13,370 nt of DNA from a virus (lineage: Duplodnaviria; Heunggongvirae; Uroviricota; Caudoviricetes): the IMG/VR virus record IMGVR_UViG_2526164628_000013; one strand, written 5' to 3'. Positions 1-11,561 of this stretch are shown here, piece after piece (positions within the stretch are counted from its first letter, which is position 1; each line of letters begins with the position of its first letter). The translations under genes were made by a program, and so were the position numbers. The notes under the pieces were generated by a model. It did no database searches. It saw only the letters and a list, made by a program, of their open reading frames with translations, and had not been told where the DNA came from.

Positions 1-201
1 ATGCTGAACGATTTAGGCGTGGATCCGCATATTGTCGAACAACTCACCGCTCACCAGATGCCAGGGATGCAGCGAGTCTATAACCACTCCCGTTATCTCG
101 ATGCGAAACGTAATGCGCTGGACATGTGGACAGAGCGGTTAGAGATACTGGCGGGTACTCACAAAAACGTAACCACACTGCCAATAGCCAGAGAAATATA
201 A
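1..201 (+). CDS. int: Tyrosine integrase, C-terminal fragment (gene starts upstream of window)
   Basis: ORF 1..201 ends ...QRVYNHSRYLDAKRNALDMWTERLEIL, the pattern of a tyrosine recombinase C-terminus with the catalytic Tyr; followed by an AlpA-like gene as in P4/CP4-57-type islands. Partial, so family call is inference. Confidence 0.7.
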   Translation: MLNDLGVDPHIVEQLTAHQMPGMQRVYNHSRYLDAKRNALDMWTERLEILAGTHKNVTTLPIAREI

Positions 202-228
202 TTTTTTTTGCGATTTTTTAGAACTGAC

Positions 229-288
229 ACAACGTGAAACAACGAGACACCACGACGAACAACGGCGAACAATCTGGAACAAACTTGA
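229..288. repeat. Six tandem 10-bp A/C-rich repeats (ACAACGTGAA, ACAACGAGAC, ACCACGACGA, ACAACGGCGA, ACAATCTGGA, ACAAACTTGA)
   Basis: Read directly: ACAACG-like hexamer recurs at 229, 239, 249, 259, 269, 279, an exact 10-bp period, in the int-alpA intergenic region. Confidence 0.8.
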
Positions 289-433
289 TTAACATCTGAC
301 TGACACCCTAAAAAGTTGATTTTCAGTCGTTTTACTGGCTTTTTGTACATTGGCGAATCACTCTTAAAAACATGTAAAAAAGGCGTAAAAACAGAATTTT
401 ATGCCTTTGCACCACAATGAATTAAAAGAGTTT

Positions 434-462
434 TTATTCTCATTACCACACTTCTGTAAAAT
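434..462 (+). promoter_or_regulatory. Candidate sigma70-like promoter upstream of alpA (TTATTC -17 bp- TAAAAT)
   Basis: -35-like TTATTC at 434-439 and -10-like TAAAAT at 457-462 with a 17-bp spacer; motif match only. Confidence 0.2.
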
Positions 463-568
463 GACCGCCGCCAGTGTTTGCCATTCCATAAACACCCTGA
501 CACAATCCGACGCACCACAACACAATAGGACACCAAATAACTCTTTAAGAAATATCAAAGGGGGAATT

Positions 569-757
569 GTGTTAAGCACAGATCGCTTTATACGTGAAAA
601 AGAATGTCAGCAACTTACAGGCCTGAGCCGTTCATGTCGGTACCGCCTGGAAAAAACCGGACAATTCCCATCACGGCGTAAGCTCGGCGGTCGTTCCGTT
701 GGCTGGTCTTTATCCGAAGTTCTGGCATGGAAGGAAAGCTGCGAGGCAGTTCACTAA
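569..757 (+). CDS. alpA: AlpA-family phage regulatory protein (winged-helix, Xis-like)
   Basis: C-terminal part of ORF 401..757 reads ...LTGLSRSCRYRLEKTGQFPSRRKLGGRSVGWSLSEVLAWKE, matching the AlpA pattern. GTG at 569 is preceded by SD AAAGGGG (557-564); this gives ~62 aa, typical AlpA size. The longer 401 start is judged an artefactual extension. Confidence 0.75.
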   Translation: MLSTDRFIREKECQQLTGLSRSCRYRLEKTGQFPSRRKLGGRSVGWSLSEVLAWKESCEAVH

Positions 758-809
758 TCAGGCTGGCGGCACACCGCCGCCACCCATCCACTAATACAGA
801 GATCTAACC

Positions 810-2000
810 ATGAATACTGGATATTCTCCCGAACAAGGGCGGGGCTTCGTTCGTCCTGAAAAACAGAATCTGCAAAATTTTGCCGAAATTATTCCGGTTA
901 TTTCCGGCCTTACTGGCGGGAGTGAAACCAATATTGTTAACGCCAGAGCGTTGCAGATGTTTGATGATAAAAAGGGAGTAAATTTAACTTACACCCCTGA
1001 CGGCAATCAGAATATGAGCATTATCTCTGAGTCAGGTTTCTACAAACTAATAAAAACAAAAAGCGCCCCGTTCCCGGAGCGCCTTTGTGAACAATTAACC
1101 TACTGCGCAAAAAATGAATCTGAGCAGTGGGATTATATCAACCGTGTGGCGAAGCGCCACAATTGCCGGATAACAGGCAAAACAAAGGCCACCCGCTACG
1201 GTGGCCCCTCGACACAAGCTACACGTTATCCCCAACGCATGAGCATCACCAACAATGCCACATTTGCGGCTGGTGGGCAATGTGATCAGTCAGATTTGGT
1301 TCGTTCCAAGGTTTGCAACGAGAGCTTTTTCCTGTGCTCTTTAAGGAATTTCTCAAGAGCAAAAGCACATGGCGCGAATCTTTCTGATTCATGCTCTATC
1401 TTTCTGCGCCGTCTTTTCCGTGCCGGTGATAATGTTTTGGTCAATTCTTTATCGGTCATTGTGTTGTCCTGCATAGCAATGCGCCGTAATACCTTACACC
1501 ACGGCGCTGATGGTGATTACTCTGGTTCTTTGGTCTTGCGACGCTGGAGTTCTTCGCGTGCAACGGTGACAAGCTGCCCGATTTCTTCCGCTGCTTTGAT
1601 GCCGATTTGTTCGACCTTAGCCAGGGCATCCAGTGACGACACAAGGGGATTTTCTCCGCTGCCTTCTGCTTGGCGGCGGGCTATTTCTCCGCGCATGGCG
1701 GTTACGATAAATCCGGCATTGCTTTCGCCGTCCAGCTTAACGGATTCCATCCCTTGCATAACATCTAGTGGGACTCTGACAGTTGTCAGTTGTGATTTTG
1801 CGTTTTTGTTAGCCGTTGCCATTTCTGAAACTCCTAATCATCGGTGTGTTTCAGTATACACAAAAAAAGAAATACAAAAAGCCTTGACGTGTGTTTCATG
1901 CGCTCATAACATGAAACACACCAAAAGAATTGTTGAAATACAAAGAGCAACGCCCCGCAGTGCCGGAAACACATACGGGGCGTCTAACCACCAACGATAG
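810..2000 (+). CDS. Hypothetical ORF; only the first ~155 codons (810..~1280) look protein-like, the rest is an open frame antisense to minus-strand genes and an operator region
   Basis: 396-codon open frame. N-terminal part has balanced composition; from ~1280 the translation becomes S/L/R/C-rich, typical of antisense reading, and it overlaps the RHH-like gene (1517..1822) which has a strong SD. Weak SD at 810. Confidence 0.3.
   Translation: MNTGYSPEQGRGFVRPEKQNLQNFAEIIPVISGLTGGSETNIVNARALQMFDDKKGVNLTYTPDGNQNMSIISESGFYKLIKTKSAPFPERLCEQLTYCAKNESEQWDYINRVAKRHNCRITGKTKATRYGGPSTQATRYPQRMSITNNATFAAGGQCDQSDLVRSKVCNESFFLCSLRNFSRAKAHGANLSDSCSIFLRRLFRAGDNVLVNSLSVIVLSCIAMRRNTLHHGADGDYSGSLVLRRWSSSRATVTSCPISSAALMPICSTLARASSDDTRGFSPLPSAWRRAISPRMAVTINPALLSPSSLTDSIPCITSSGTLTVVSCDFAFLLAVAISETPNHRCVSVYTKKEIQKALTCVSCAHNMKHTKRIVEIQRATPRSAGNTYGASNHQR
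1286..1459 (-). CDS. Small basic hypothetical protein (MTDKELTKTLSPARKRRRRKIEHES...)
   Basis: Minus-strand ORF downstream of the RHH-like gene; internal ATG at 1459 has AGGA 7 nt upstream; K/R-rich. Could be spurious. Confidence 0.3.
   Translation of the reverse strand: MTDKELTKTLSPARKRRRRKIEHESERFAPCAFALEKFLKEHRKKLSLQTLERTKSD
1517..1822 (-). CDS. Putative small DNA-binding regulator (possibly ribbon-helix-helix), divergent from the rightward operon
   Basis: 101-aa ORF with protein-like composition; ATG at 1822 preceded on the minus strand by AGGAG with 8-nt spacer; its upstream region carries the palindromic operator at 1889-1921. Fold assignment is inference. Confidence 0.6.
   Translation of the reverse strand: MATANKNAKSQLTTVRVPLDVMQGMESVKLDGESNAGFIVTAMRGEIARRQAEGSGENPLVSSLDALAKVEQIGIKAAEEIGQLVTVAREELQRRKTKEPE
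1884..1921 (+). promoter_or_regulatory. Rightward promoter (TTGACG -17- TAACAT) overlapped by a perfect 12-bp inverted repeat operator
   Basis: TTGACG 1884-1889, TAACAT 1907-1912. GTGTGTTTCATG (1889-1900) and CATGAAACACAC (1910-1921) are exact reverse complements with a 9-bp spacer; a third half-site GTGTGTTTCA lies at 1844-1853. Confidence 0.5.
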
Positions 2001-2019
2001 CAAGATTATCGAGGCTGCT

Positions 2020-2226
2020 ATGAGAAATCATACCATACACCCGCAAGGGCGGGACTCGCACAACCTGAATAAATACATCTGGCGTTTTATCGCCCTGAGT
2101 ACGGCACAACCGCGCGTGATTACCATTGAGGCCACCAGCGAACAGGAAGCCCGTCAGCAATCACCGGCTGGCTGCGTGATGGTATTCGCCGCCCGTATTC
2201 GTCAGGGGGTGCACCATGTGCAATAA
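2020..2226 (+). CDS. Small hypothetical protein, first gene of the rightward operon (weak resemblance to Icd/Ash-like proteins of P4-type islands, unverified)
   Basis: ATG 2020 preceded by GAGG (2011-2014); MRNHTIHPQGRDSHNLNKYIWRFIALSTAQPRVITIEATSEQEARQQSPAGCVMVFAARI... Family call from memory only. Confidence 0.45.
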   Translation: MRNHTIHPQGRDSHNLNKYIWRFIALSTAQPRVITIEATSEQEARQQSPAGCVMVFAARIRQGVHHVQ

Positions 2227-2476
2227 CACCCGTCCGGACGCAGCCGCCGAAGCAATCAAAACACTGATTGATGCGCTGATTGATATTTCTGTTATCGCGG
2301 ACAGGGCGCATAAGCACGCTACCAGTGAAACAGAATATGCCGGGGCTTTCGTTCCTCATTCGCTGGCGGTTATGCAACTTAGTGCGGATATGGCGCTGAA
2401 TGAGGCCAAAGCCATCCTGATTGCTGATTGTGAAAATGGGGGGGGGTTATGCGTGATGATCGTTTTAATTCCCTGA
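2216..2476 (+). CDS. Hypothetical small protein
   Basis: ATG 2216 with AGGGGG SD 6 nt upstream; start overlaps the preceding stop; ends across the G9 tract. Confidence 0.4.
   Translation: MCNNTRPDAAAEAIKTLIDALIDISVIADRAHKHATSETEYAGAFVPHSLAVMQLSADMALNEAKAILIADCENGGGLCVMIVLIP
2438..2446. repeat. G9 homopolymer tract at the junction of two overlapping ORFs
   Basis: Nine consecutive G read directly at 2438-2446; encodes GGG in ORF 2216..2476 and sits 2 nt upstream of ATG 2449. Confidence 0.9.
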
Positions 2477-2682
2477 AACAGGAATTTTCCGGCGTTCCTG
2501 ATGATGCGGCTGATGCGCTTTCGTCAATGCCAGAGCTTATTAGAGCGGCTTTTTTCTTACTTTCCACGAGAGAATATAAATCAACGGGGCTTGATGTACT
2601 GAATATCGCCGCCGATTATGCGGAATATGTGGCAGAGGCGCGTTACAGAAGAAAATTTCCTGAGGATGTAAGCCATGCGTGA
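2449..2682 (+). CDS. Hypothetical small protein
   Basis: ATG 2449 immediately downstream of the G-rich tract (SD-like); overlaps neighbours at both ends. Confidence 0.4.
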   Translation: MRDDRFNSLKQEFSGVPDDAADALSSMPELIRAAFFLLSTREYKSTGLDVLNIAADYAEYVAEARYRRKFPEDVSHA

Positions 2683-2908
2683 TATTTACCACGAAACAAT
2701 AGACCGCGCATTTCTTGCACTTTCTCACAGTGAAAACATGCTGGAAATATTGCGCATATGGCTTGAAACACTTGGCGACAATGAACGCGACAAACAAAAA
2801 TCAAGAATTGCCACGGCATTAATAACGCTTCTTGAGCCTGTAATAATGGAACTGCAAGAAATAGATCTATTGCACGACAGATATAAAGAACAGCACACCG
2901 GAGAATAA
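2675..2908 (+). CDS. Hypothetical small protein (predicted helical)
   Basis: ATG 2675 overlaps the previous stop; GAGGA 8 nt upstream. Confidence 0.4.
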   Translation: MRDIYHETIDRAFLALSHSENMLEILRIWLETLGDNERDKQKSRIATALITLLEPVIMELQEIDLLHDRYKEQHTGE

Positions 2909-2913
2909 AAATA

Positions 2914-3213
2914 ATGAAACTTAAATATTCTGGCTTAACTGCCAGTGGCAACACTCACCCTAAATTTACGCGCGGTGATATTTACCGCGACCAGTACGGC
3001 GGCACGGTAATGATTAAGGGCGTGGAAGAACGGCGCGTAATCTACCGCCGTGAAGGTTACGAATATGATTGCGTGATGCCTGTTTATCAGTTCCGGTGTG
3101 ATTTTTCTCTGGTACAGACCGCGCCGCATAACGTGCCCACCAGCAACGCCAGGGCACGGGCAAACATCCAGAAGCTGAAAACCATGATTAACGGATTCAG
3201 GGGCAAGAAATGA
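2914..3213 (+). CDS. Hypothetical small protein immediately upstream of and overlapping the replication helicase gene
   Basis: ATG 2914; stop overlaps ATG 3210 of the next gene (ATGA-type coupling). Confidence 0.45.
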   Translation: MKLKYSGLTASGNTHPKFTRGDIYRDQYGGTVMIKGVEERRVIYRREGYEYDCVMPVYQFRCDFSLVQTAPHNVPTSNARARANIQKLKTMINGFRGKK

Positions 3214-4625
3214 AAAGCGCACCGAACTTAAAAAAACAGCCTTACGACAAAATGACCGAAGTCATTATTTTTGCGGGTAGTGATGCCTGGGCGCACGCGA
3301 AACAATGGCAGGAGCAGGACGGGCGACTTGCTGGCGACAATGTTCCGCCTGTATGGCTGGGAGACAGCCAGCTTGACGAACTGGCAGGCCTGAAAATTAT
3401 CGACGATGGTCGCTATTGTGTCCGACTGTACAAGGCAGGCCACATCAAGCCGTCAAATATTAATGCCATCGGGCAAAAGCTGGCGGCGGCAGGTGTACGG
3501 GATGCGAATTATTACCCTGAGGGAATGCACAGTCAGAAGCTGGAGAACTGGCACGACTACCTGCAACGGATCCGCGAACAGGCAGAGCGCGGGGAAATAC
3601 TTACTGACGAGCAATACAGCCAGCGAAAAACCACGCTACCAATGAGCATTGGATCTGCAGGGTACGACACACAGCTTGATTATGTCGTTAAGGGCGTGAT
3701 TCCGGCTAATTCATTGTGCAGCACATACGGCGCGAGCGGTTCCTATAAATCGTTCCTCGCGTGTTCCTGGGCGTGTCATGTTGCCACGGGTCGCCACTGG
3801 GGAGGTCGCAGGGTGGCGCATGGTTCGGTGATGTATGTTGTCGGTGAAGGTGGCATTGGTGTCCCCCGCCGTATCAAGGCATGGGAAATCGTTAATGATG
3901 AACGGGTGAAAAATCTGTACCTGGTAAACCGCCCGATTTTTCCTGCAGCCCAGTTTGATGTTGATGAAATGGTTATCGCATCCCGCCAGGTTGAACGGGA
4001 AACGGGTAAACCGGTACGCATGATTATTCTGGATACGCTGGCGCGTTGCTTTGGCGGTAATGATGAAAATGACGCGCGGGATATGGGGGCGTTTATCCGT
4101 GGATGTGACGAACTGAAACGACGCACAGGGGCCACGGTGCTGGTGGTTCACCATTCCGGCAAGGATGAAACAAAAGGGGCGCGTGGTTCCAGTGCATTTC
4201 GTGCATCTCTGGACGCTGAGTACCGGATCCGCCGCGAAGGCGCGGACAGTGAGGCCCTGGTTATCTCCTGCACCAAAATGAAGGACGCGGAGGAACTGAA
4301 AGAGGCTGCATATGATTTACGTGTGGTGGAGCTTTTTACCGACGCTGACAAGGAGTTAATCACGTCGCTGGTGGTTGTGGATAAGCCGCGCCCACCCGTT
4401 GAACTGGAGCGCATCGAGGAGGCCGGAAACAAGACGGAGAATCACGCCGCACTATGGGGCTGTATCCGGTCACGCACACAGCGCGGCGATAAATGCACTA
4501 TCCCGTTGTTGCGCGATGATATGAAAAAGCTGGGGTATGAGATGAAAAACTTCCGGCGCTGGCTGTACAAGCTGGAAAGAGACGGCGTTATCGCTATTGA
4601 CGGTGATGATGTGCGCCCACTGTAA
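3210..4625 (+). CDS. Replication protein: RepA/DnaB-like P-loop helicase (satellite/PICI pri-rep-like) with C-terminal winged-helix-like tail
   Basis: 471 aa. Walker A-like YGASGSYKS, RecA-fold signatures MIILDTLARCFGG and VLVVHHSGKD; basic C-terminal ~60 aa plausibly DNA-binding. Iteron array begins at its stop codon. Confidence 0.75.
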   Translation: MKSAPNLKKQPYDKMTEVIIFAGSDAWAHAKQWQEQDGRLAGDNVPPVWLGDSQLDELAGLKIIDDGRYCVRLYKAGHIKPSNINAIGQKLAAAGVRDANYYPEGMHSQKLENWHDYLQRIREQAERGEILTDEQYSQRKTTLPMSIGSAGYDTQLDYVVKGVIPANSLCSTYGASGSYKSFLACSWACHVATGRHWGGRRVAHGSVMYVVGEGGIGVPRRIKAWEIVNDERVKNLYLVNRPIFPAAQFDVDEMVIASRQVERETGKPVRMIILDTLARCFGGNDENDARDMGAFIRGCDELKRRTGATVLVVHHSGKDETKGARGSSAFRASLDAEYRIRREGADSEALVISCTKMKDAEELKEAAYDLRVVELFTDADKELITSLVVVDKPRPPVELERIEEAGNKTENHAALWGCIRSRTQRGDKCTIPLLRDDMKKLGYEMKNFRRWLYKLERDGVIAIDGDDVRPL

Positions 4626-4826
4626 AAAGTGAGGCGCAAAAGTGAGGGGATAGCAGGAACTGAACAAAAAGCAACCGCGCCCCTCACTTTTCAATCTGTA
4701 TATAGGCTCAAAAGTGAGGAATAAAAAACACATTGAAAAACAACATATTAGAATCACAAAAAAACAAGGTTGGAAATCATGTGGGGAGCTTAAAAAGTGA
4801 GGCGAAAAAGTGGGGAGTAGTGGGGA
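4625..4826. repeat. Iteron array, putative replication origin: AAAAGTGAGG direct repeats plus one inverted copy and an AT-rich stretch
   Basis: AAAAGTGAGG at 4625, 4638, 4710, 4793; variant AAAAGTGGGG at 4806; inverted copy CCTCACTTTT at 4682-4691; AT-rich 4720-4770. Lies directly after the helicase gene. Confidence 0.6.
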
Positions 4827-5078
4827 ATGACCAGAAAAAGCAGAGATAAAACAGCACCAAAATATCGCGCATTAGACATGACAGAGCACGCCTTAAAGGT
4901 GGCAATCAGAACGATAGACCGCCACGCCGGAGAAGGATACGCGAAAGCGCATCCCGAACTGATAAGCGCATTCATGACCACGGCGGCGGCAAATTTTGCC
5001 ACACTGACAGAACGGGAGATTGCCGAAGCGGAACAGGTGACAACCATCAACGTTAAAACCGGAGAGCAGACAGCATGA
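4827..5078 (+). CDS. Hypothetical protein between ori and ssb
   Basis: 83-aa ORF; stop overlaps ATG of the SSB-like gene (ATGA at 5075-5078). Confidence 0.45.
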   Translation: MTRKSRDKTAPKYRALDMTEHALKVAIRTIDRHAGEGYAKAHPELISAFMTTAAANFATLTEREIAEAEQVTTINVKTGEQTA

Positions 5079-5497
5079 CAGCACAGATAGCGGCTTACGG
5101 GCGGCTGGTGGCTGACCCGCAGTTAAAGACCACCAGCAAGGGTACACAAATGACGATGGCGAGTATGGCGGTCCCACTTCCGTGCAGCCAGGCAGATGAC
5201 GGAACGGCGACGATGTGGTTATCCGTCCTGGCGTTTGGCAGACAGGCCGAAGCACTGGCAAAGCACCGCAAGGGTGAACTCCTGAGCGTGGCGGGTAACA
5301 TGCAGGTAAGCCAGTGGACAGGCCAGAACGGCGAAACGCGGCGGGGCTGGCAGGTTATCGCAGACAGCGTAATCAGTGCGCGAACGGCGCGACCGGGCGG
5401 CAAAAAAGGTCAGCAGGGGCAGGCCACTGACGCACTGAACAGGGCAAAACAACAGTCGGGGAATGATGATCCGTACGGCGATAATATACCGTTTTAA
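5075..5497 (+). CDS. ssb: Single-stranded DNA-binding protein-like (OB fold with acidic ...DDPYGDNIPF tail)
   Basis: 140 aa. N-terminal ~100 aa align by eye to E. coli SSB OB-fold segments (GRLVADPQL..., WLSVLAFGRQAEALAKHRKGELLSVAGNMQVSQWTGQNGETR...). C-terminus ends DNIPF, like the SSB DDDIPF tail. Confidence 0.65.
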   Translation: MTAQIAAYGRLVADPQLKTTSKGTQMTMASMAVPLPCSQADDGTATMWLSVLAFGRQAEALAKHRKGELLSVAGNMQVSQWTGQNGETRRGWQVIADSVISARTARPGGKKGQQGQATDALNRAKQQSGNDDPYGDNIPF

Positions 5498-5514
5498 ATT
5501 CTGCAAACAAAAAG

Positions 5515-5543
5515 ATGCCGGAAAAAAATAGATTTTCCGGCAT
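5515..5543. terminator. Perfect 11-bp stem hairpin (ATGCCGGAAAA / TTTTCCGGCAT, 7-nt loop) between replication and capsid modules
   Basis: Read directly. A U-tract follows the stem only on the minus-strand transcript; on the + strand an A-tract precedes it. Orientation ambiguous. Confidence 0.4.
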
Positions 5544-5714
5544 GCTACATAAATCCCGACCAAAGGAAGTAAATACATTAACACGAATTATCAGCACTGA
5601 AGTTGTCACGGCATATTTTATACAACATTGCACTTGGTTGCATGTATTCGCATAGCAGACATCGGTAATAGAATATATTCACAATTATTTGTAATGAATG
5701 TAAAGAGGATGAGT

Positions 5715-6755
5715 ATGGTTGATTTATATTCGCCTACACAGCTTGTGCAGGTGGCTAATGCTGAAGATGTGCAAAAAAAATTAAATGCGTTGTTTACCAG
5801 TTTGTTTTTCACTCGCTCGGTAATGTTTGAATCGAGAGACATTATTCTTGATACGATCGACGATCCAAATATCCCGATCGCGGCGTTTTGCTCTCCTATG
5901 GTGGGCAGTAAAGTTTCACGAGATGAGGGATACGAATCAAAAACAATTCGCCCTGGCTATATGAAACCGAAAAGCAGCATTGATCCAAATAAGTTAGCTG
6001 TGCGCCCTGCTGGTGTATCACCTGAACAATACAATGCTTTTGGGGCGCGTAATATTAAAGTTAAACAGGCGATTGTAAATCAGGCTAAAGCTATACGTGC
6101 ACGTATTGAATGGCTTGCTGTTCAGGCAATCACAACGGGGAAAAATATCATTGAGGGCGATGGTATTGAACGTTATGAACTGGACTGGAATATAAAACCA
6201 CAAAATATTATCACGCAGTCTGGCGGTGCTGAGTGGTCAGGTAAGGATAAAGAAACTTTTGATCCAAATGATGATATTGAGAGCTACGCAGAATTTAGTG
6301 AGGGCGTCACTAATATCATCATTATGGGCGGTAATGTATGGAAGAAATACCGTTCATTCAGAGCGATAAAAGAGGCTCTGGATACCCGCCGTGGTTCTAA
6401 TTCCGAACTGGAAACGGCCCTTAAAGACCTTGGTGATTCGGTGAGTTTTAAAGGGTATATGGGCGATGTTGCGATTGTTGTTTACAGCGGACGTTATACC
6501 GACGAGGACGGAACTGAAAAACATTTCCTTGATCCTGATTTGATGGTGCTTGGCAATACGGCTCTTCAGGGGATTGTCGCCTATGGCGGTATTCAGGATC
6601 CGGAGCTAACCCGAATGGGGCTGACTAAAGCCGAACTTGCACCGAAAAACTATATTGTGCCTGGTGATCCGGCTATTGAGTACGTACAAACGCACTCTGC
6701 ACCACAGCCAATACCGGCCCGCATCAATCGTTTTGTTACCGTTCGCATTGGCTAA
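5715..6755 (+). CDS. Major capsid protein, phage lambda gpE family
   Basis: Internal ATG 5715 with SD AAAGAGG (5702-5708). Long blocks match lambda gpE as recalled (NIITQSGGAEWSGKDKETFDPNDDIESYA..., AIKEALDTRRGSNSELETALKDLG..., YMGDVAIVVYSG..., MVLGNTA). About 346 aa. Confidence 0.85.
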   Translation: MVDLYSPTQLVQVANAEDVQKKLNALFTSLFFTRSVMFESRDIILDTIDDPNIPIAAFCSPMVGSKVSRDEGYESKTIRPGYMKPKSSIDPNKLAVRPAGVSPEQYNAFGARNIKVKQAIVNQAKAIRARIEWLAVQAITTGKNIIEGDGIERYELDWNIKPQNIITQSGGAEWSGKDKETFDPNDDIESYAEFSEGVTNIIIMGGNVWKKYRSFRAIKEALDTRRGSNSELETALKDLGDSVSFKGYMGDVAIVVYSGRYTDEDGTEKHFLDPDLMVLGNTALQGIVAYGGIQDPELTRMGLTKAELAPKNYIVPGDPAIEYVQTHSAPQPIPARINRFVTVRIG

Positions 6756-6764
6756 GGGGGAGCA

Positions 6765-6958
6765 ATGGCTACTCATTACACTGAACTCATGTCTGGCACT
6801 GAAGCACTGGTTACTACGCTGGGGATATTTTCAGCCAATAAAGGGGTAATACCTGCGTTTACGCCACTGATGCAGGAAGATGCAACTGGTGCGCTAGTGG
6901 TATGGGATGGAACGAGCGCAGGCAAAGCGGTTTATGTTTCCGCTGTACAAATCGACAC
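6765..6958 (+). pseudogene. Head decoration protein (lambda gpD-like), 3'-truncated by IS629
   Basis: SD AAGGGGGA then ATG 6765. ...AFTPLMQEDATGALVVWDGTSAGKAVYVSAVQ... resembles the lambda gpD core. Reading frame runs into the IS629 left end at 6959 after ~64 native codons (gpD is ~110 aa). Confidence 0.6.
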
Positions 6959-7012: not shown

Positions 7013-7339
7013 ATGACTAAAAATACTCGTTTTTCCCCCGAAGTCCGTCAGAGGGCGATTCGTATGGTTCTGGAAAGTCAGGGCGAATATGACTCACAGT
7101 GGGCGGCAATTTGTTCCATTGCCCCAAAGATTGACTGTACACCGGAGACTCTGCGTGTCTGGGTACGCCAGCATGAGCGGGATACCGGAGGCGGTGATGG
7201 CGGGCTCACCACCGCTGAACGTCAGCGTCTGAAAGAGCTGGAACGTGAAAATCGTGAACTGCGCCGCAGTAACGATATCCTTCGCCAGGCTTCCGCTTAT
7301 TTTGCGAAGGCGGAGTTCGACCGCCTCTGGAAAAAGTGA
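7013..7339 (+). CDS. IS629 OrfA (transposase N-terminal/HTH component)
   Basis: [30 protein letters not shown]...[18 protein letters not shown], 108 aa. Confidence 0.85.
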
Positions 7340-8226
7340 TGCCACTGCTGGATAAGCTGCGTAAGCTGTACGGGGTCGGACCGGTATGCAGTGAACTACA
7401 TATTGCCCCGTCAACGTATTACCACTGTCAGCAACAGCGACATCATCCTGATAAACGCAGTGCCCGTGCGCAGCGCGATGACTGGCTGAAGAAAGAGATA
7501 CTGCGCGTATACGATGGGAATCATCAGGTATACGGTGTGCGTAAAGTCTGGCGTCAGTTGTTACGGGAAGGAATCAGGGTAGCCAGATGTACAGTGGCGC
7601 GCCTCATGGCGGTTATGGGACTTGCCGGTGTTCTCCGGGGTAAAAAGGTCCGCACTACCGTCAGCCGGAAAGCCGTTGCCGCAGGCGACCGCGTAAACCG
7701 TCAGTTTGTGGCAGAACGTCCTGACCAGTTGTGGGTGGCTGATTTTACTTACGTCAGCACATGGCAGGGGGTCGTCTATGTGGCGTTCATCATTGATGTG
7801 TTTGCCGGATACATCGTGGGGTGGCGGGTCTCATCGTCTATGGAAACGACATTCGTGCTGGATGCTCTGGAGCAGGCGTTATGGGCCCGTCGACCGTCCG
7901 GCACAGTCCATCACAGTGATAAAGGTTCTCAGTATGTATCGCTGGCCTACACACAGCGGCTTAAGGAAGCCGGATTACTGGCATCAACAGGAAGTACTGG
8001 TGACTCGTATGACAACGCGATGGCGGAGAGCATCAATGGCCTTTACAAAGCGGAGGTAATACACCGTAAGAGCTGGAAAAACCGGACAGAAGTGGAACTG
8101 GCCACACTCACGTGGGTGGACTGGTATAACAATCGACGATTGCTGGAAAGGCTGGGCCATATCCCACCGGCAGAAGCAGAAAAAGCTTATTATGCTTCCA
8201 TCGGAAACGATGATCTGGCAGCCTGA
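7336..8226 (+). CDS. IS629 OrfB (transposase catalytic component; -1 frame relative to orfA)
   Basis: 296 aa with rve-type integrase core (…[14 protein letters not shown]…[10 protein letters not shown]…[10 protein letters not shown]…); overlaps orfA end, typical of IS3-family frameshift organisation. Confidence 0.85.
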
Positions 8227-8280: not shown

Positions 8281-9831
8281 TCATCGCACACCGCCTTTTT
8301 CCTGATGAAAGCGGCAACGAGCAATCACGGATTGAATTTCAAATTGTGTGGTTTCATGGATTGAAATAAGTGGATTGCGGGCGTTACCAACACTGTCTGA
8401 AATGGAAATCAATTCATCGACTTCTTTAACTACACTCTCCAGCACCGCCTGATGGTCACCATCAGTAAAGGGGCGGAAATACAGGCAACCGTAGCAGCAG
8501 CGTACTTCACTGAATGGGCATTTGCCATCATCTCTGGAGCAACCGCCAATCCCATCATGCAACTCATCACCGATTATGCCGACCACGCGCTGGTCTTGCC
8601 ATTTCGTTGAAGAGGTCAGTTCACCAGTCAACATCATAGCCACCATGTTTTGCCATACCGGATTGATACCCAATGCTTTGGCTCGAATCAGTGCCAGTGC
8701 AGGCGTCGCCAGAATGTAATACTTGGCAACAGTAAGGGAGCTATGTCCCAGAATATGCGCAATTTCCTCGGCGCTGACCCCTTGCATAGCCAGTGAATGC
8801 CCCACGTTGTGGCGCAAGTCGGTCGGGGTAATGGTTGGCAAAGCCGCTTCGCCACGCTTTACGGCTGCCTGATAATCTGGCGGACTGAAACAGAGGAAGG
8901 CCTTGTTAATCGCTCTGGACACATTAAACGGTGCAGAGTTACTAAATTCAAATAGCTTGCCATCAGGTTTTAGTTGCGCTCGCTCGATATAGTGCCTAAT
9001 CAACGCGCCGATTTCAGCTGGAATCGCCAAAAACAGACGTTCAGTCGTTACGTGCCGCTGTTTGGCGTAAGGAAGGAGTAAGCTATATCGTATTAATCCG
9101 GTTTCGGAGTTTCGGGTATCAATACGTAAATCTTTTACCGCCAGCTTGGCCAGTTGTACCGGTCGGGCACCGGTGACATACGTCAGTCCCAGAATTACTG
9201 CATCTCGCATGGTGTTCAGACTGTAGTTTTCGCCATACCGAATCGCCACAGCCATTTCAAACAAGCCTTTACTGATCATGTTTTTTTCGAGGGGATCCAG
9301 AACATGATCAATTTCCTGATAGATTCCCCAGTCATGGGAGTGCGGGCGAGGGATGAATTCGAGGTCTTCATAATCTTCGAGGGTAAAACCAGGGAATGCT
9401 TCGGTACAGAGGATTTTTAGGCCGAAAATGATAAAGTAGAAATATTGAGGTTTAATTTCCTGAGTTTCGAGGTAATCTTTCAACACCGTAAAAGTGAAAG
9501 CAGATTTGCTTATGCAATGATCAGTTGCCAAAGACCACGCATGGAGTACCCCAGGAACCTGAGCTGGACACTTGGCAGATGCATAATGGAAGCAAATATA
9601 TTTGATTAATTGGTTGCTGATTTTATCCTGACGAAAGTGGGCATAGCAGCGGCTTCCTGAATAATCGAATACCCAACTGTCACTTGTTGAGCTGATATAT
9701 TTGTCATCAAAATGATCTGCCGATTTAAGATAAATACTAACTGGTATATTAACCTTTAAAATACTCTCAACAAATACAGGTGTGTAAATGTTGCTGTTCG
9801 ACGCATTTAACTGTTTATTGATTCGACTCAT
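8281..9831 (-). CDS. Large tyrosine recombinase (~516 aa) with extended N-terminal domain and ~135-aa C-terminal extension carrying a Cys cluster
   Basis: Box I-like LGLTYVTGARPVQLAKL, box II-like TDLRHNVGH and LGHSSLTVAKYY (catalytic Tyr). Start at ATG 9831 (GGAG 5 nt upstream); in-frame ATGs also at 9846 and 9855. Stop lies 12 bp from the IS629 right end. Confidence 0.7.
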   Translation of the reverse strand: MSRINKQLNASNSNIYTPVFVESILKVNIPVSIYLKSADHFDDKYISSTSDSWVFDYSGSRCYAHFRQDKISNQLIKYICFHYASAKCPAQVPGVLHAWSLATDHCISKSAFTFTVLKDYLETQEIKPQYFYFIIFGLKILCTEAFPGFTLEDYEDLEFIPRPHSHDWGIYQEIDHVLDPLEKNMISKGLFEMAVAIRYGENYSLNTMRDAVILGLTYVTGARPVQLAKLAVKDLRIDTRNSETGLIRYSLLLPYAKQRHVTTERLFLAIPAEIGALIRHYIERAQLKPDGKLFEFSNSAPFNVSRAINKAFLCFSPPDYQAAVKRGEAALPTITPTDLRHNVGHSLAMQGVSAEEIAHILGHSSLTVAKYYILATPALALIRAKALGINPVWQNMVAMMLTGELTSSTKWQDQRVVGIIGDELHDGIGGCSRDDGKCPFSEVRCCYGCLYFRPFTDGDHQAVLESVVKEVDELISISDSVGNARNPLISIHETTQFEIQSVIARCRFHQEKGGVR

Positions 9832-10237
9832 ATGCACTCCATTCATCGCATACATGGGAAAAGGTTGATTTCAGGGCTTCGTTATCAATCACAATTCGCT
9901 GAAGATTGGCCGTATTAGCCTGCTGAGATAGAAATCTTTTAGCGTAAAGATCAGGCATATGGCTATTGTGACTCCAACCGCCAAGTAGCCGTAATTCATC
10001 CTTGGCTTCATCCATCAATCCAACGATAGAAAAGTCTATGGCTGCCAAGTGTGAGTTGGCCTTAATTTTTTGAAGTTTATCACGATAAATACGTTGAAGT
10101 GTTAAATAAGCCCAAGTATGCCGCGTTATATGAGGCGAGATGCTTTCAATGGCATCATAATATTCATCTTTTTTATATTCAGGATACTGCACACTCATAA
10201 TGTCATCAATACGGGTAAAGATATCATAGACTGCATG

Positions 10238-10242: not shown

Positions 10243-10333
10243 TAGACTGGCCCCCTGAATCTCCAGACAACCAATATCACTTAAATAAGTGATAGTCTTA
10301 ATACTAGTTTTTAGACTAGTCATTGGAGAGCAG

Positions 10334-10663
10334 ATGATTGATGTCTTAGGACCGGAGAAACGCAGACGGCGTACTACACAGGAAAAGATCGCTATTGTTC
10401 AGCAGAGTTTTGAACCGGGAATGACGGTCTCCCTTGTTGCCCGGCAACACGGTGTGGCAGCCAGCCAGTTATTTCTCTGGCGCAAGCAATACCAGGAGGG
10501 AAGTCTTACTGCTGTGGCCGCAGGAGAGCAGGTCGTTCCTGCCTCTGAACTTGCTGCTGCCATGAAGCAGATTAAAGAACTCCAGCGCCTGCTCGGCAAA
10601 AAACGATGGAAAATGAACTCCTTAAAGAAGCCGTTGAATACGGGCGTGCAAAAAAGTGGATAG
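10334..10663 (+). CDS. insC: IS2 OrfA (InsC), apparently frameshifted in this copy
   Basis: [18 protein letters not shown]...LQRLLGKK matches InsC, then the frame diverges (…[19 protein letters not shown]) while the expected InsC C-terminus [31 protein letters not shown] is encoded in the +1 frame from 10603. A-run at 10598-10603 is 6 A. Confidence 0.75.
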
Positions 10664-11561
10664 CGCACGCGCCCTTATTGCCCGGGGATGGGGAGTAAGC
10701 TTAGTCAGCCGTTGTCTCCGGGTGTCGCGTGCGCAGTTGCACGTAATTCTCAGACGAACCGATGACTGGAAAGATGGTCGCCGCAGCCGTCACTCAGATG
10801 ATACGGATGTGCTTCTCCGTATACACCATGTTATCGGAGAGCTGCCCACGTATGGTTATCGTCGGGTATGGGCGCTGCTTCGCAGACAGGCCGAACTTGA
10901 TGGTATGCCTGCGATCAATGCCAAACGTGTTTACCGGATCATGCGCCAGAATGCGCTGTTGCTTGAGCGAAAAACCGCTGTACCGCCATCGAAACGGGCA
11001 CATACTGGCAAAGTGGCCGTGAAAGAAAGCAATCAACGATGGTGCTCTGACGGGTTCGAGTTCCGCTGTGATAACGGAGAAAAACTGCGAGTCACGTTCG
11101 CGCTGGACTGCTGTGACCGTGAGGCACTGCACTGGGCAGTCACTACGGGCGGCTTCGACAGTGAAACAGTACAGGACGTAATGCTGGGAGCGGTGGAACG
11201 CCGCTTCGGCAACGAGCTTCCGGCGTCTCCAGTAGAGTGGCTGACGGATAATGGTTCATGCTACCGGGCTAATGAAACACGGCAGTTTGCCCGGATGTTG
11301 GGGCTTGAACCGAAGAACACGGCGGTGCGGAGTCCGGAGAGTAACGGCATAGCAGAGAGCTTCGTGAAAACGATAAAGCGTGACTACATCAGTATCATGC
11401 CTAAACCAGACGGGTTAACGGCAGCAAAGAACCTTGCAGAGGCGTTCGAGCATTATAACGAATGGCATCCGCATAGTGCACTGGGTTATCGCTCGCCACG
11501 GGAATATCTGCGGCAGCAGGCCAGTAATGGGTTAAGTGATAACAGGTGTCTGGAAATATAG
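10656..11561 (+). CDS. insD: IS2 OrfB (InsD transposase catalytic component)
   Basis: 301 aa, [34 protein letters not shown]... matches InsD as recalled; GTG start just after the A6G slippery motif (10650-10656). Confidence 0.85.

Follow-up and report, generated by a model that had tools for sequence, protein, structure and literature searches.

The stretch of viral DNA analysed here (13,370 nucleotides; hereafter the window) begins with the 3′ end of int (window 1-201, plus strand), which identity to the E. coli TW10590 locus L001, together with Pfam, assigns to a tyrosine integrase of the P4/IntS type, 409 aa long in the complete copy. Downstream on the same strand lies alpA (569-757, GTG start), encoding a 62-aa winged-helix regulator/excisionase. 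The spacer between these genes carries array A (225-284, plus strand), six head-to-tail 10-bp units that are proposed below to form a cooperative AlpA-binding operator, followed by an IHF-like site, a hairpin, a predicted alpA promoter and a second, weaker array (array B).

Window positions 1-6958 are 99.97% identical to L001 16001-22960 (window position = L001 position - 16000), where int is annotated at 14972-16201 and the full-length Int contains the Pfam domains Arm-DNA-bind_3, Phage_int_M and Phage_integrase. Downstream of alpA, Pfam identified DUF4222, a RepA-type helicase, an SSB, a major capsid protein and a head-decoration gene. The L001 island measures ~10.4 kb and is inserted between mcaS/abgR and smrA; its att core, AATATCGTGA, was defined by comparing L001 with an empty site. 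The window's int-alpA module shares 89% identity with the module in L003, a locus that encodes the EcCICFT073 Int and AlpA proteins, and the published EcCICFT073 primers match the window's spacer except at one base. Judging from the co-oriented int, alpA, replication module and capsid genes, and from the specific chromosomal insertion, the window covers the left part of a phage-inducible chromosomal island (PICI) of the EcCICFT073 type, a close relative of EcCICFT073, the prototype Gram-negative PICI. Homologous int-alpA modules were found in 1088 of 5426 complete E. coli genomes; a search of a phage collection with window 1-820 returned no match.

The identity to L001 stops at window 6958, within the head-decoration gene, and an IS3-family element follows, with HTH_Tnp_1 and rve ORFs at 7013-8226, indicating that the island copy in the window is disrupted. 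The sole Rfam match of the whole window, an IS3 ALIL frameshift pseudoknot, lies at 7294-7410. Further on, a 524-aa ORF with a weak Phage_integrase match (8281-9855, minus strand) and a second IS3-type transposase pair (10289-11561, plus strand) suggest a mosaic of mobile elements beyond the truncated island. Directly 3′ of alpA, a 396-aa ORF (810-2000, plus strand) has no Pfam match and is absent from the RefSeq annotation of the identical L001 sequence, where a YlcI/YnfO gene is annotated on the other strand instead (window 1517-1822). The region is the variable ‘Bro zone’ of PICIs.

Array A reads, in order, TGACACAACG TGAAACAACG AGACACCACG ACGAACAACG GCGAACAATC TGGAACAAAC. The ACAA core recurs at 229, 239, 259, 269 and 279, position 249 having ACCA, and the corresponding hexamers are ACAACG or ACAATC (four), ACCACG (one) and ACAAAC (one). 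These are direct repeats in a single orientation, six units spaced exactly 10 bp, or one helical turn, apart. The first-pass annotation had described six 10-bp repeats with hexamers at 229, 239, 249, 259, 269 and 279 and had placed them between int and alpA, and it was right on both counts. Tandem Repeats Finder reported a period of 10 at window 226-272, and the lag-10 self-identity of the array, 0.72 in a 60-bp window against a whole-window mean of 0.26 (sd 0.07), is the maximum for all positions and lags 4-30 in the 13.4-kb window. Exact chains of at least three ACAA cores at 10-bp steps occur at only three places in L001 (32.8 kb), namely array A and two arrays in the att arms, with about 0.003 such chains expected per shuffle of L001.

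To assess how this pattern is conserved, we compared 72 loci sharing the alpA 5′ end, of which 65 were IMG/VR satellite contigs and 7 were genomic. Sufficient upstream sequence was available for 64 of them, giving 50 distinct int-alpA spacers. Array A was present in all 50, with five to seven adjacent units sharing a short, loosely conserved core. In the 50-sequence alignment the A.CAA columns are 90-100% conserved every 10 bp, and the positions in between 40-80%. The unit logo, drawn from 43 distinct units, is nGnaACAAnn, with the information concentrated in four to five positions, A-C-A-A plus the upstream G. This conservation partly reflects shared descent, as the relatives are mostly E. 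coli kin, and the contrast between core and spacer positions is its informative part. On the evidence of the alignment, array A is under selection as a phased motif. Spacing is also restricted: a conserved TGATTTT follows the last array unit at either 36-38 bp or 45-47 bp and in turn lies 159-161 bp from the -35 element, so that the distances from array to IHF-like site and from IHF-like site to -35 maintain helical phase. Islands with a RepA helicase, with a DUF927 protein and with a D5-type primase as replication module do not differ in the array. In one IMG/VR contig (L063), an extra exact 10-bp unit was observed, GAGCAACAAT being duplicated, which implies that the array expands in whole-unit steps.

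The remainder of the spacer is similarly structured. The IHF-like site, AATCAACTTTTTA (window 309-321, minus strand), matches the consensus WATCARNNNNTTR exactly and is preserved in 48 of the 50 distinct spacers, always 167-169 bp from the alpA -35 element. Nine versions of it were seen, differing at the four N positions with the consensus positions intact. An activator-dependent promoter just downstream of array A was considered and rejected by eye, since the -10-like hexamers there (TAAAAA, TAATAA and TATAAG) lack the final T and overlap the IHF consensus. Further downstream, a conserved hairpin with a 12-bp stem, AAAGGCGTAAAA-ACAGAA-TTTTATGCCTTT (379-408, plus strand), was judged by folding each sequence separately; in the alignment the clades are offset from each other by 1 nt. 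Most of 22 sequence variants keep the hairpin, and in a few it is weaker. The plus-strand RNA folds with about -12.5 kcal/mol and is on average more stable than the minus strand, because several variants pair through G.U. The hairpin probably acts as an intrinsic terminator, or as an insulator separating int from the alpA promoter; as an int terminator it would insulate alpA from int read-through. In the O157-type clade (e.g., L006), a 12-bp palindrome was observed just upstream of the hairpin, at the equivalent of window ~361-372, with a compensatory change (CTCTTTAAAGAG vs. CGCTTTAAAGCG); it is absent in the window's clade (CTCTTAAAAACA).

A consensus scan predicted a sigma-70 promoter for alpA at window 478-506 (plus strand), consisting of TTGCCA, a 17-bp spacer and TG-a-CACAAT. 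The -35 region TTTGCCA is invariant in the 50-sequence alignment and CCTGACACAAT is largely conserved. Overlapping the predicted -10 element and the alpA 5′ UTR is array B (499-538, plus strand), a degenerate CA-rich run with weaker phasing of 10/20 bp and a lag-20 peak at 493, which reads GACACAATCC GACGCACCAC AACACAATAG GACACCAAAT. The EcCICFT073 version is cleaner (GACACAATCC GACACAACCC AACCCAATAA TCCACCCAAT). Array B is possibly a second AlpA site of lower affinity, as far as its sequence tells, and its resemblance to array A may arise partly from two overlapping promoter-like matches.

The first-pass annotation had also proposed a comparison with the att-proximal regions of related islands, and this comparison recovered the same motif. 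The reverse complement of the unit (TTGTTCC-like), again at 10-bp phase, is present in both att arms of L001, in each case in the orientation opposite to array A. The P′ arm array has four units (L001 14880-14920, between the attL core and the int ATG), with a single unit at 14837-46, and the P arm array has three units (25089-25121, at the right island end). EcCICFT073 has the same three arrays, those in the arms lying at L165 398-480 and 11659-11690. Each arm array of L001 adjoins a doubled 12-bp motif, GGTGTAGTTAAT x2 (14928-14951 and 25135-25158), located about 78-101 bp from the core on one side and 136-159 bp on the other.

Among the islands this motif comes in two versions, and each goes with one variant of the Int N-terminus. 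Islands whose Int carries SVRHSTSGLL have GTAGTTAAT (23/23; P′ arm 14/14, P arm 9/9), and those with SVKYLTSGKL have GTAGTCAC/T (18/18; P′ arm 9/9, P arm 9/9), while the rest of the surrounding arm sequence does not differ and the flanking ACAA arrays are identical in both types. This covariation in 41/41 cases indicates that the doubled motif is the Int arm-type site and that the Int arm domain does not determine the phased arrays. Linkage should be kept in mind for the P′ copy, which is only ~20 bp from int; the P-arm copy, across the core, behaves alike. In L001, and likewise in EcCICFT073, the phased motif thus stands in the att arms beside integrase arm-type sites. Array A itself is about 1.43 kb from the attL core, outside the ~150-200 bp from the crossover core within which arm sites are expected. 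Both the covariation and this distance contradict the suggestion of the first-pass annotation that the repeats are integrase arm-type sites.

More distant relatives separate array A from the arm arrays. Where AlpA is 65-70% identical, an ORF lies between int and alpA, and array A is missing while the arm arrays are kept; array A is therefore dispensable for AlpA-type regulation in general, which counts against the operator reading proposed below. Islands with AlpA 55-70% identical retain P′ arm arrays with the related cores TTGYTCG, YGTTCAT and CTGTTTC. A scan of genome contigs with AlpA gave only 3 loci, a word-indexed protein search gave only 19 AlpA relatives, and a scan of viral contigs with an AlpA alignment mostly returned the same clade again. 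In islands with AlpA 65-67% identical, two GTTCG/CGAAC units 10 bp apart were observed inside a hairpin directly upstream of the alpA start codon (L158 3443-3466; L153 2306-2330; L156 2522-2548). This pair may serve autoregulation at the ribosome-binding site.

AlpA belongs to Pfam family Phage_AlpA (PF05930; 2.7e-18). Its AlphaFold2 model is a winged helix (pLDDT 88) whose top structural match is the GIsul2 excisionase (8c3t; TM 0.83/0.90), followed by the RdfS excisionase, Pukovnik Xis and TorI (8dgl, 4j2n and 1z4h), and its sequence profile matches 8c3t at 4e-16. By this model, the island encodes a small winged-helix protein of the excisionase type. Activation of its own promoter by AlpA and its requirement for excision have been published, and the DNA target of AlpA is not defined in the same reports (PMC6092414; PMC11773190; PMC10111431). 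EcCICFT073 AlpA (WP_000953274) expressed from pBAD in a strain lacking the island activates a PalpA-lacZ reporter in trans (PMC6092414). By its primers, this reporter spans L165 1728-2183, which corresponds to window 170-627. Arrays A and B are therefore both inside the responsive fragment; no other repeat clusters were found in it. Positive autoregulation by AlpA was also seen with an EcCIMP1 reporter spanning -449 to +50 relative to alpA. A Pint reporter of EcCICFT073 was unchanged by AlpA (PMC6092414). This counts against the reading of the arrays as AlpA operators, as the P′ arm array is directly upstream of int. The primers of the Pint reporter had no match in the CFT073 stretch searched.

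Several well-studied excisionases offer precedents for such arrays. In coliphage 186 (Apl) and P2 (Cox), a small excisionase is also a transcriptional regulator, as proposed for AlpA; it binds six to seven direct repeats spaced 10-11 bp at a promoter and a similar array at attP, and binding is cooperative, head-to-tail and of low specificity, requiring at least three adjacent sites (PMC7498355). Recombination directionality factors (RDFs) of this type typically recognise direct repeats spaced by one helical turn, and some of them also control promoters through arrays of 6-7 units. In phage 186, seven Apl operators are present at promoters besides the att array. However, Apl and Cox repress face-to-face promoters that their own sites overlap, whereas AlpA is reported to activate its own promoter (PMC6092414), and array A is >200 bp upstream of the predicted promoter. 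The AlpA sequence family also differs from Apl/Cox.

A closer parallel in arrangement is the KplE1 (CPS-53) prophage, where the TorI sites I3-I5 on attL (GTTCG, GTTCG and GATCG) are exactly 10 bp apart (PMC2951348). The P′ arm-type sites of IntS and the intS start codon follow directly downstream of them, the same order as in the P′ arm of this island. TorI matches the AlpA model weakly in structure (TM 0.63) and marginally in sequence (hhalign probability 20%). The KplE1 sites differ in their conserved core, GxxCG rather than ACAA/TTGT, and all described TorI sites are on attL, with no separate array described downstream of intS.

In P4, doubled 12-bp ‘attP arm sequence repeats’ are annotated in both arms, one pair beside the int ATG. 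Ahead of the P′ pair, in the same position as the P′ array here, are four 10-bp-phased units with a TCC core, three of them xTCCG. Vis is both an AlpA homologue and the P4 excisionase, and by analogy the phased units are presumably Vis sites; the gene order of P4 differs, vis being far from int. P4 (L166) also has three tandem 10-bp ‘ori type 2 repeats’ (GCTTTAAGTG-like) at 9176-9205, ~150 bp upstream of vis, which are unlike the att-arm units. Each of these E. coli elements has an invariant core of its own (TTGT in this island, TCC in P4, GxxCG in KplE1), which points to a binder encoded by the element.

For HE-PICIs, the att-site section of PMC10111431 describes a co-oriented doubled motif, tgTGTATTGCantgTGTATTGCa, with the geometry seen here, ~80-100 bp and ~135 bp from the core. 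That section reports the motif as unique to HE-PICIs, leaves open whether Int or AlpA is the binder, and contains no mention of phased 10-bp arrays (PMC10111431). The same paper includes a tRNA-Ile2 group of PICIs that has no alpA. RdfS of ICEMlSymR7A, the second-best structural match of the AlpA model, is an oligomerising winged-helix excisionase. Its target next to an Int arm site is the ~40 bp immediately upstream, and it binds promoters as well, one of them at an upstream site and again at the ribosome-binding site. It differs from AlpA in having no definable sequence motif, in repressing its own promoter and in an extra N-terminal helix. A different precedent, AlpA-type antitermination in P. 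aeruginosa, was set aside because it involves a much larger eight-helix protein and a single GGGACG element between -35 and -10. Overall, in those properties of RDF operator arrays that can be read from DNA, array A resembles the operator arrays of Apl/Cox and the TorI sites, and it probably works like them.

We therefore consider it reasonably probable that array A is a cooperative AlpA operator serving alpA autoregulation, probably together with the conserved IHF-like site. AlpA as the binder, and the effect of binding on transcription, are what we infer. AlpA would assemble on array A as a cooperative head-to-tail filament, as do Xis, Cox, Apl and TorI, and would bend the DNA; together with IHF, this would raise alpA transcription. 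Array A would then be an upstream operator through which AlpA boosts its own transcription once the helper phage has started alpA expression, and array B could add direct contact or feedback. At the shorter arm arrays, beside the Int arm-type sites, AlpA would play its excisionase role. The general idea of the first-pass annotation, cooperative protein sites on one face of the DNA, fits this proposal, and among the options it offered, Xis/AlpA sites fit best. Its assignment of the region to excision control was half right: the recombination arms, one upstream of int and the other at the opposite island end, have arrays of their own, and array A is inside the fragment that mediates AlpA autoactivation in EcCICFT073. 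For these two reasons, a role in transcription, as an operator of the excisionase/regulator, is more likely for array A than one within a recombination site. The activation step is the weakest of the proposal, because some 230-290 bp separate array A from the predicted alpA start downstream of it, at the sole consensus promoter, an unusual distance and a long one for simple activation, and because the start itself is predicted. In addition, DUF4222 and Icd-like genes accompany the array in the seven annotated loci, so that co-occurrence alone does not single out AlpA.

It is rather unlikely, but consistent with part of the evidence, that AlpA binds array A for a purpose other than alpA autoactivation, such as looping or insulation of int, a block to read-through, or buffering of AlpA, where titration of the free protein would give an induction threshold. 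The arrays upstream and downstream of int are inverted relative to each other, and array A lies between the int stop codon and the terminator-like hairpin, and so within the int 3′ UTR. Regulation of the integrase gene also has precedents, as intS is repressed by TorI and IntS in KplE1, and RdfS regulates intS and represses its own promoter. However, the reporter fragment activated by AlpA lacks int and the int promoter and still responds, AlpA has no effect on Pint in EcCICFT073, and we did not find bridging between separate arrays described for proteins of this kind.

The binder could instead be a host winged-helix response regulator of the OmpR/PhoB/TorR type, or another host factor, which would link the island to host physiology. 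The G-x-x-A-C-A-A unit resembles the OmpR F1-F3 half-sites (TGAAACA) and the tor boxes (CTGTTCATAT), and this likeness of the six GxxACA-like repeats, together with the IHF-like site adjoining array A, speaks for such a factor. Nevertheless, the motif sits exactly at the positions of the excisionase sites in the KplE1 and P4 att arms, its invariant core varies among elements of the same host, and no such regulator was found reported for PICIs in the literature, all of which makes host control quite unlikely.

We regard binding by another module-borne island protein (DUF4222, Icd-like or YlcI/YnfO) as very improbable. Although DUF4222 and Icd-like genes are present in 7/7 annotated array-bearing loci, P4 and KplE1 have the same array architecture without those genes and each encodes a protein of the AlpA/TorI type, and AlpA alone activates the EcCICFT073 fragment in an island-free strain. 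Still less can be said for the Int N-terminal domain (residues 1-95) binding array A as a set of arm-type sites: Int does have an Arm-DNA-bind_3 domain and the motif does recur in both att arms, but the domain covaries with the doubled 12-bp motif and not with the ACAA arrays, the arm repeats annotated in P4 are doubled 12-mers, and array A is ~1.4 kb from the core, so that this assignment is highly improbable.

That the repeats are iterons of a replication origin, DNA with intrinsic curvature or an RNA element in the int 3′ UTR is scarcely credible: tandem 10-bp repeats do occur in origins (as the three ‘ori type 2’ repeats of P4) and array A is probably transcribed with int, but it is unchanged over three unrelated replication modules, which excludes Rep iterons (the PICI origin is reported downstream of pri), its 61 bp (48% G+C) hold two AAA runs only and no A-tract of at least 4, leaving the intrinsic bending suggested by the first-pass annotation unsupported as judged from A-tracts, a search of window 150-620 found no Rfam family at E<=1, and the same motif inverted in the att arms argues for recognition at the DNA level.

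If array A is an AlpA operator, the three arrays might further form a single AlpA-dosage circuit in which ‘commit, then excise’ is timed by operator number alone, an extension that we put forward as speculative and unlikely as it stands. The six-unit array would fill first and, with IHF, flip alpA to a self-sustaining ON state. The shorter arm arrays would fill only at higher AlpA levels and license excision, and the inverted arrays flanking int would also loop int. Were this true, thousands of Gram-negative PICIs would follow the same logic.

Gram-negative PICIs have AlpA as their master switch, and while sites of this kind are familiar, we did not find them mapped in the literature for the AlpA-type PICI family. 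The analysis provides a candidate AlpA operator motif, nGnaACAAnn at 10-bp phase, and locates it at three places in the prototype EcCICFT073. On the question raised in PMC10111431 it adds evidence from comparison, as the doubled 12-bp att motif tracks the arm-binding domain of the integrase and not AlpA. If confirmed, the motif could serve in mapping AlpA regulons and annotating att sites, and could help explain how induction by a helper phage is turned into an all-or-none response of the satellite.
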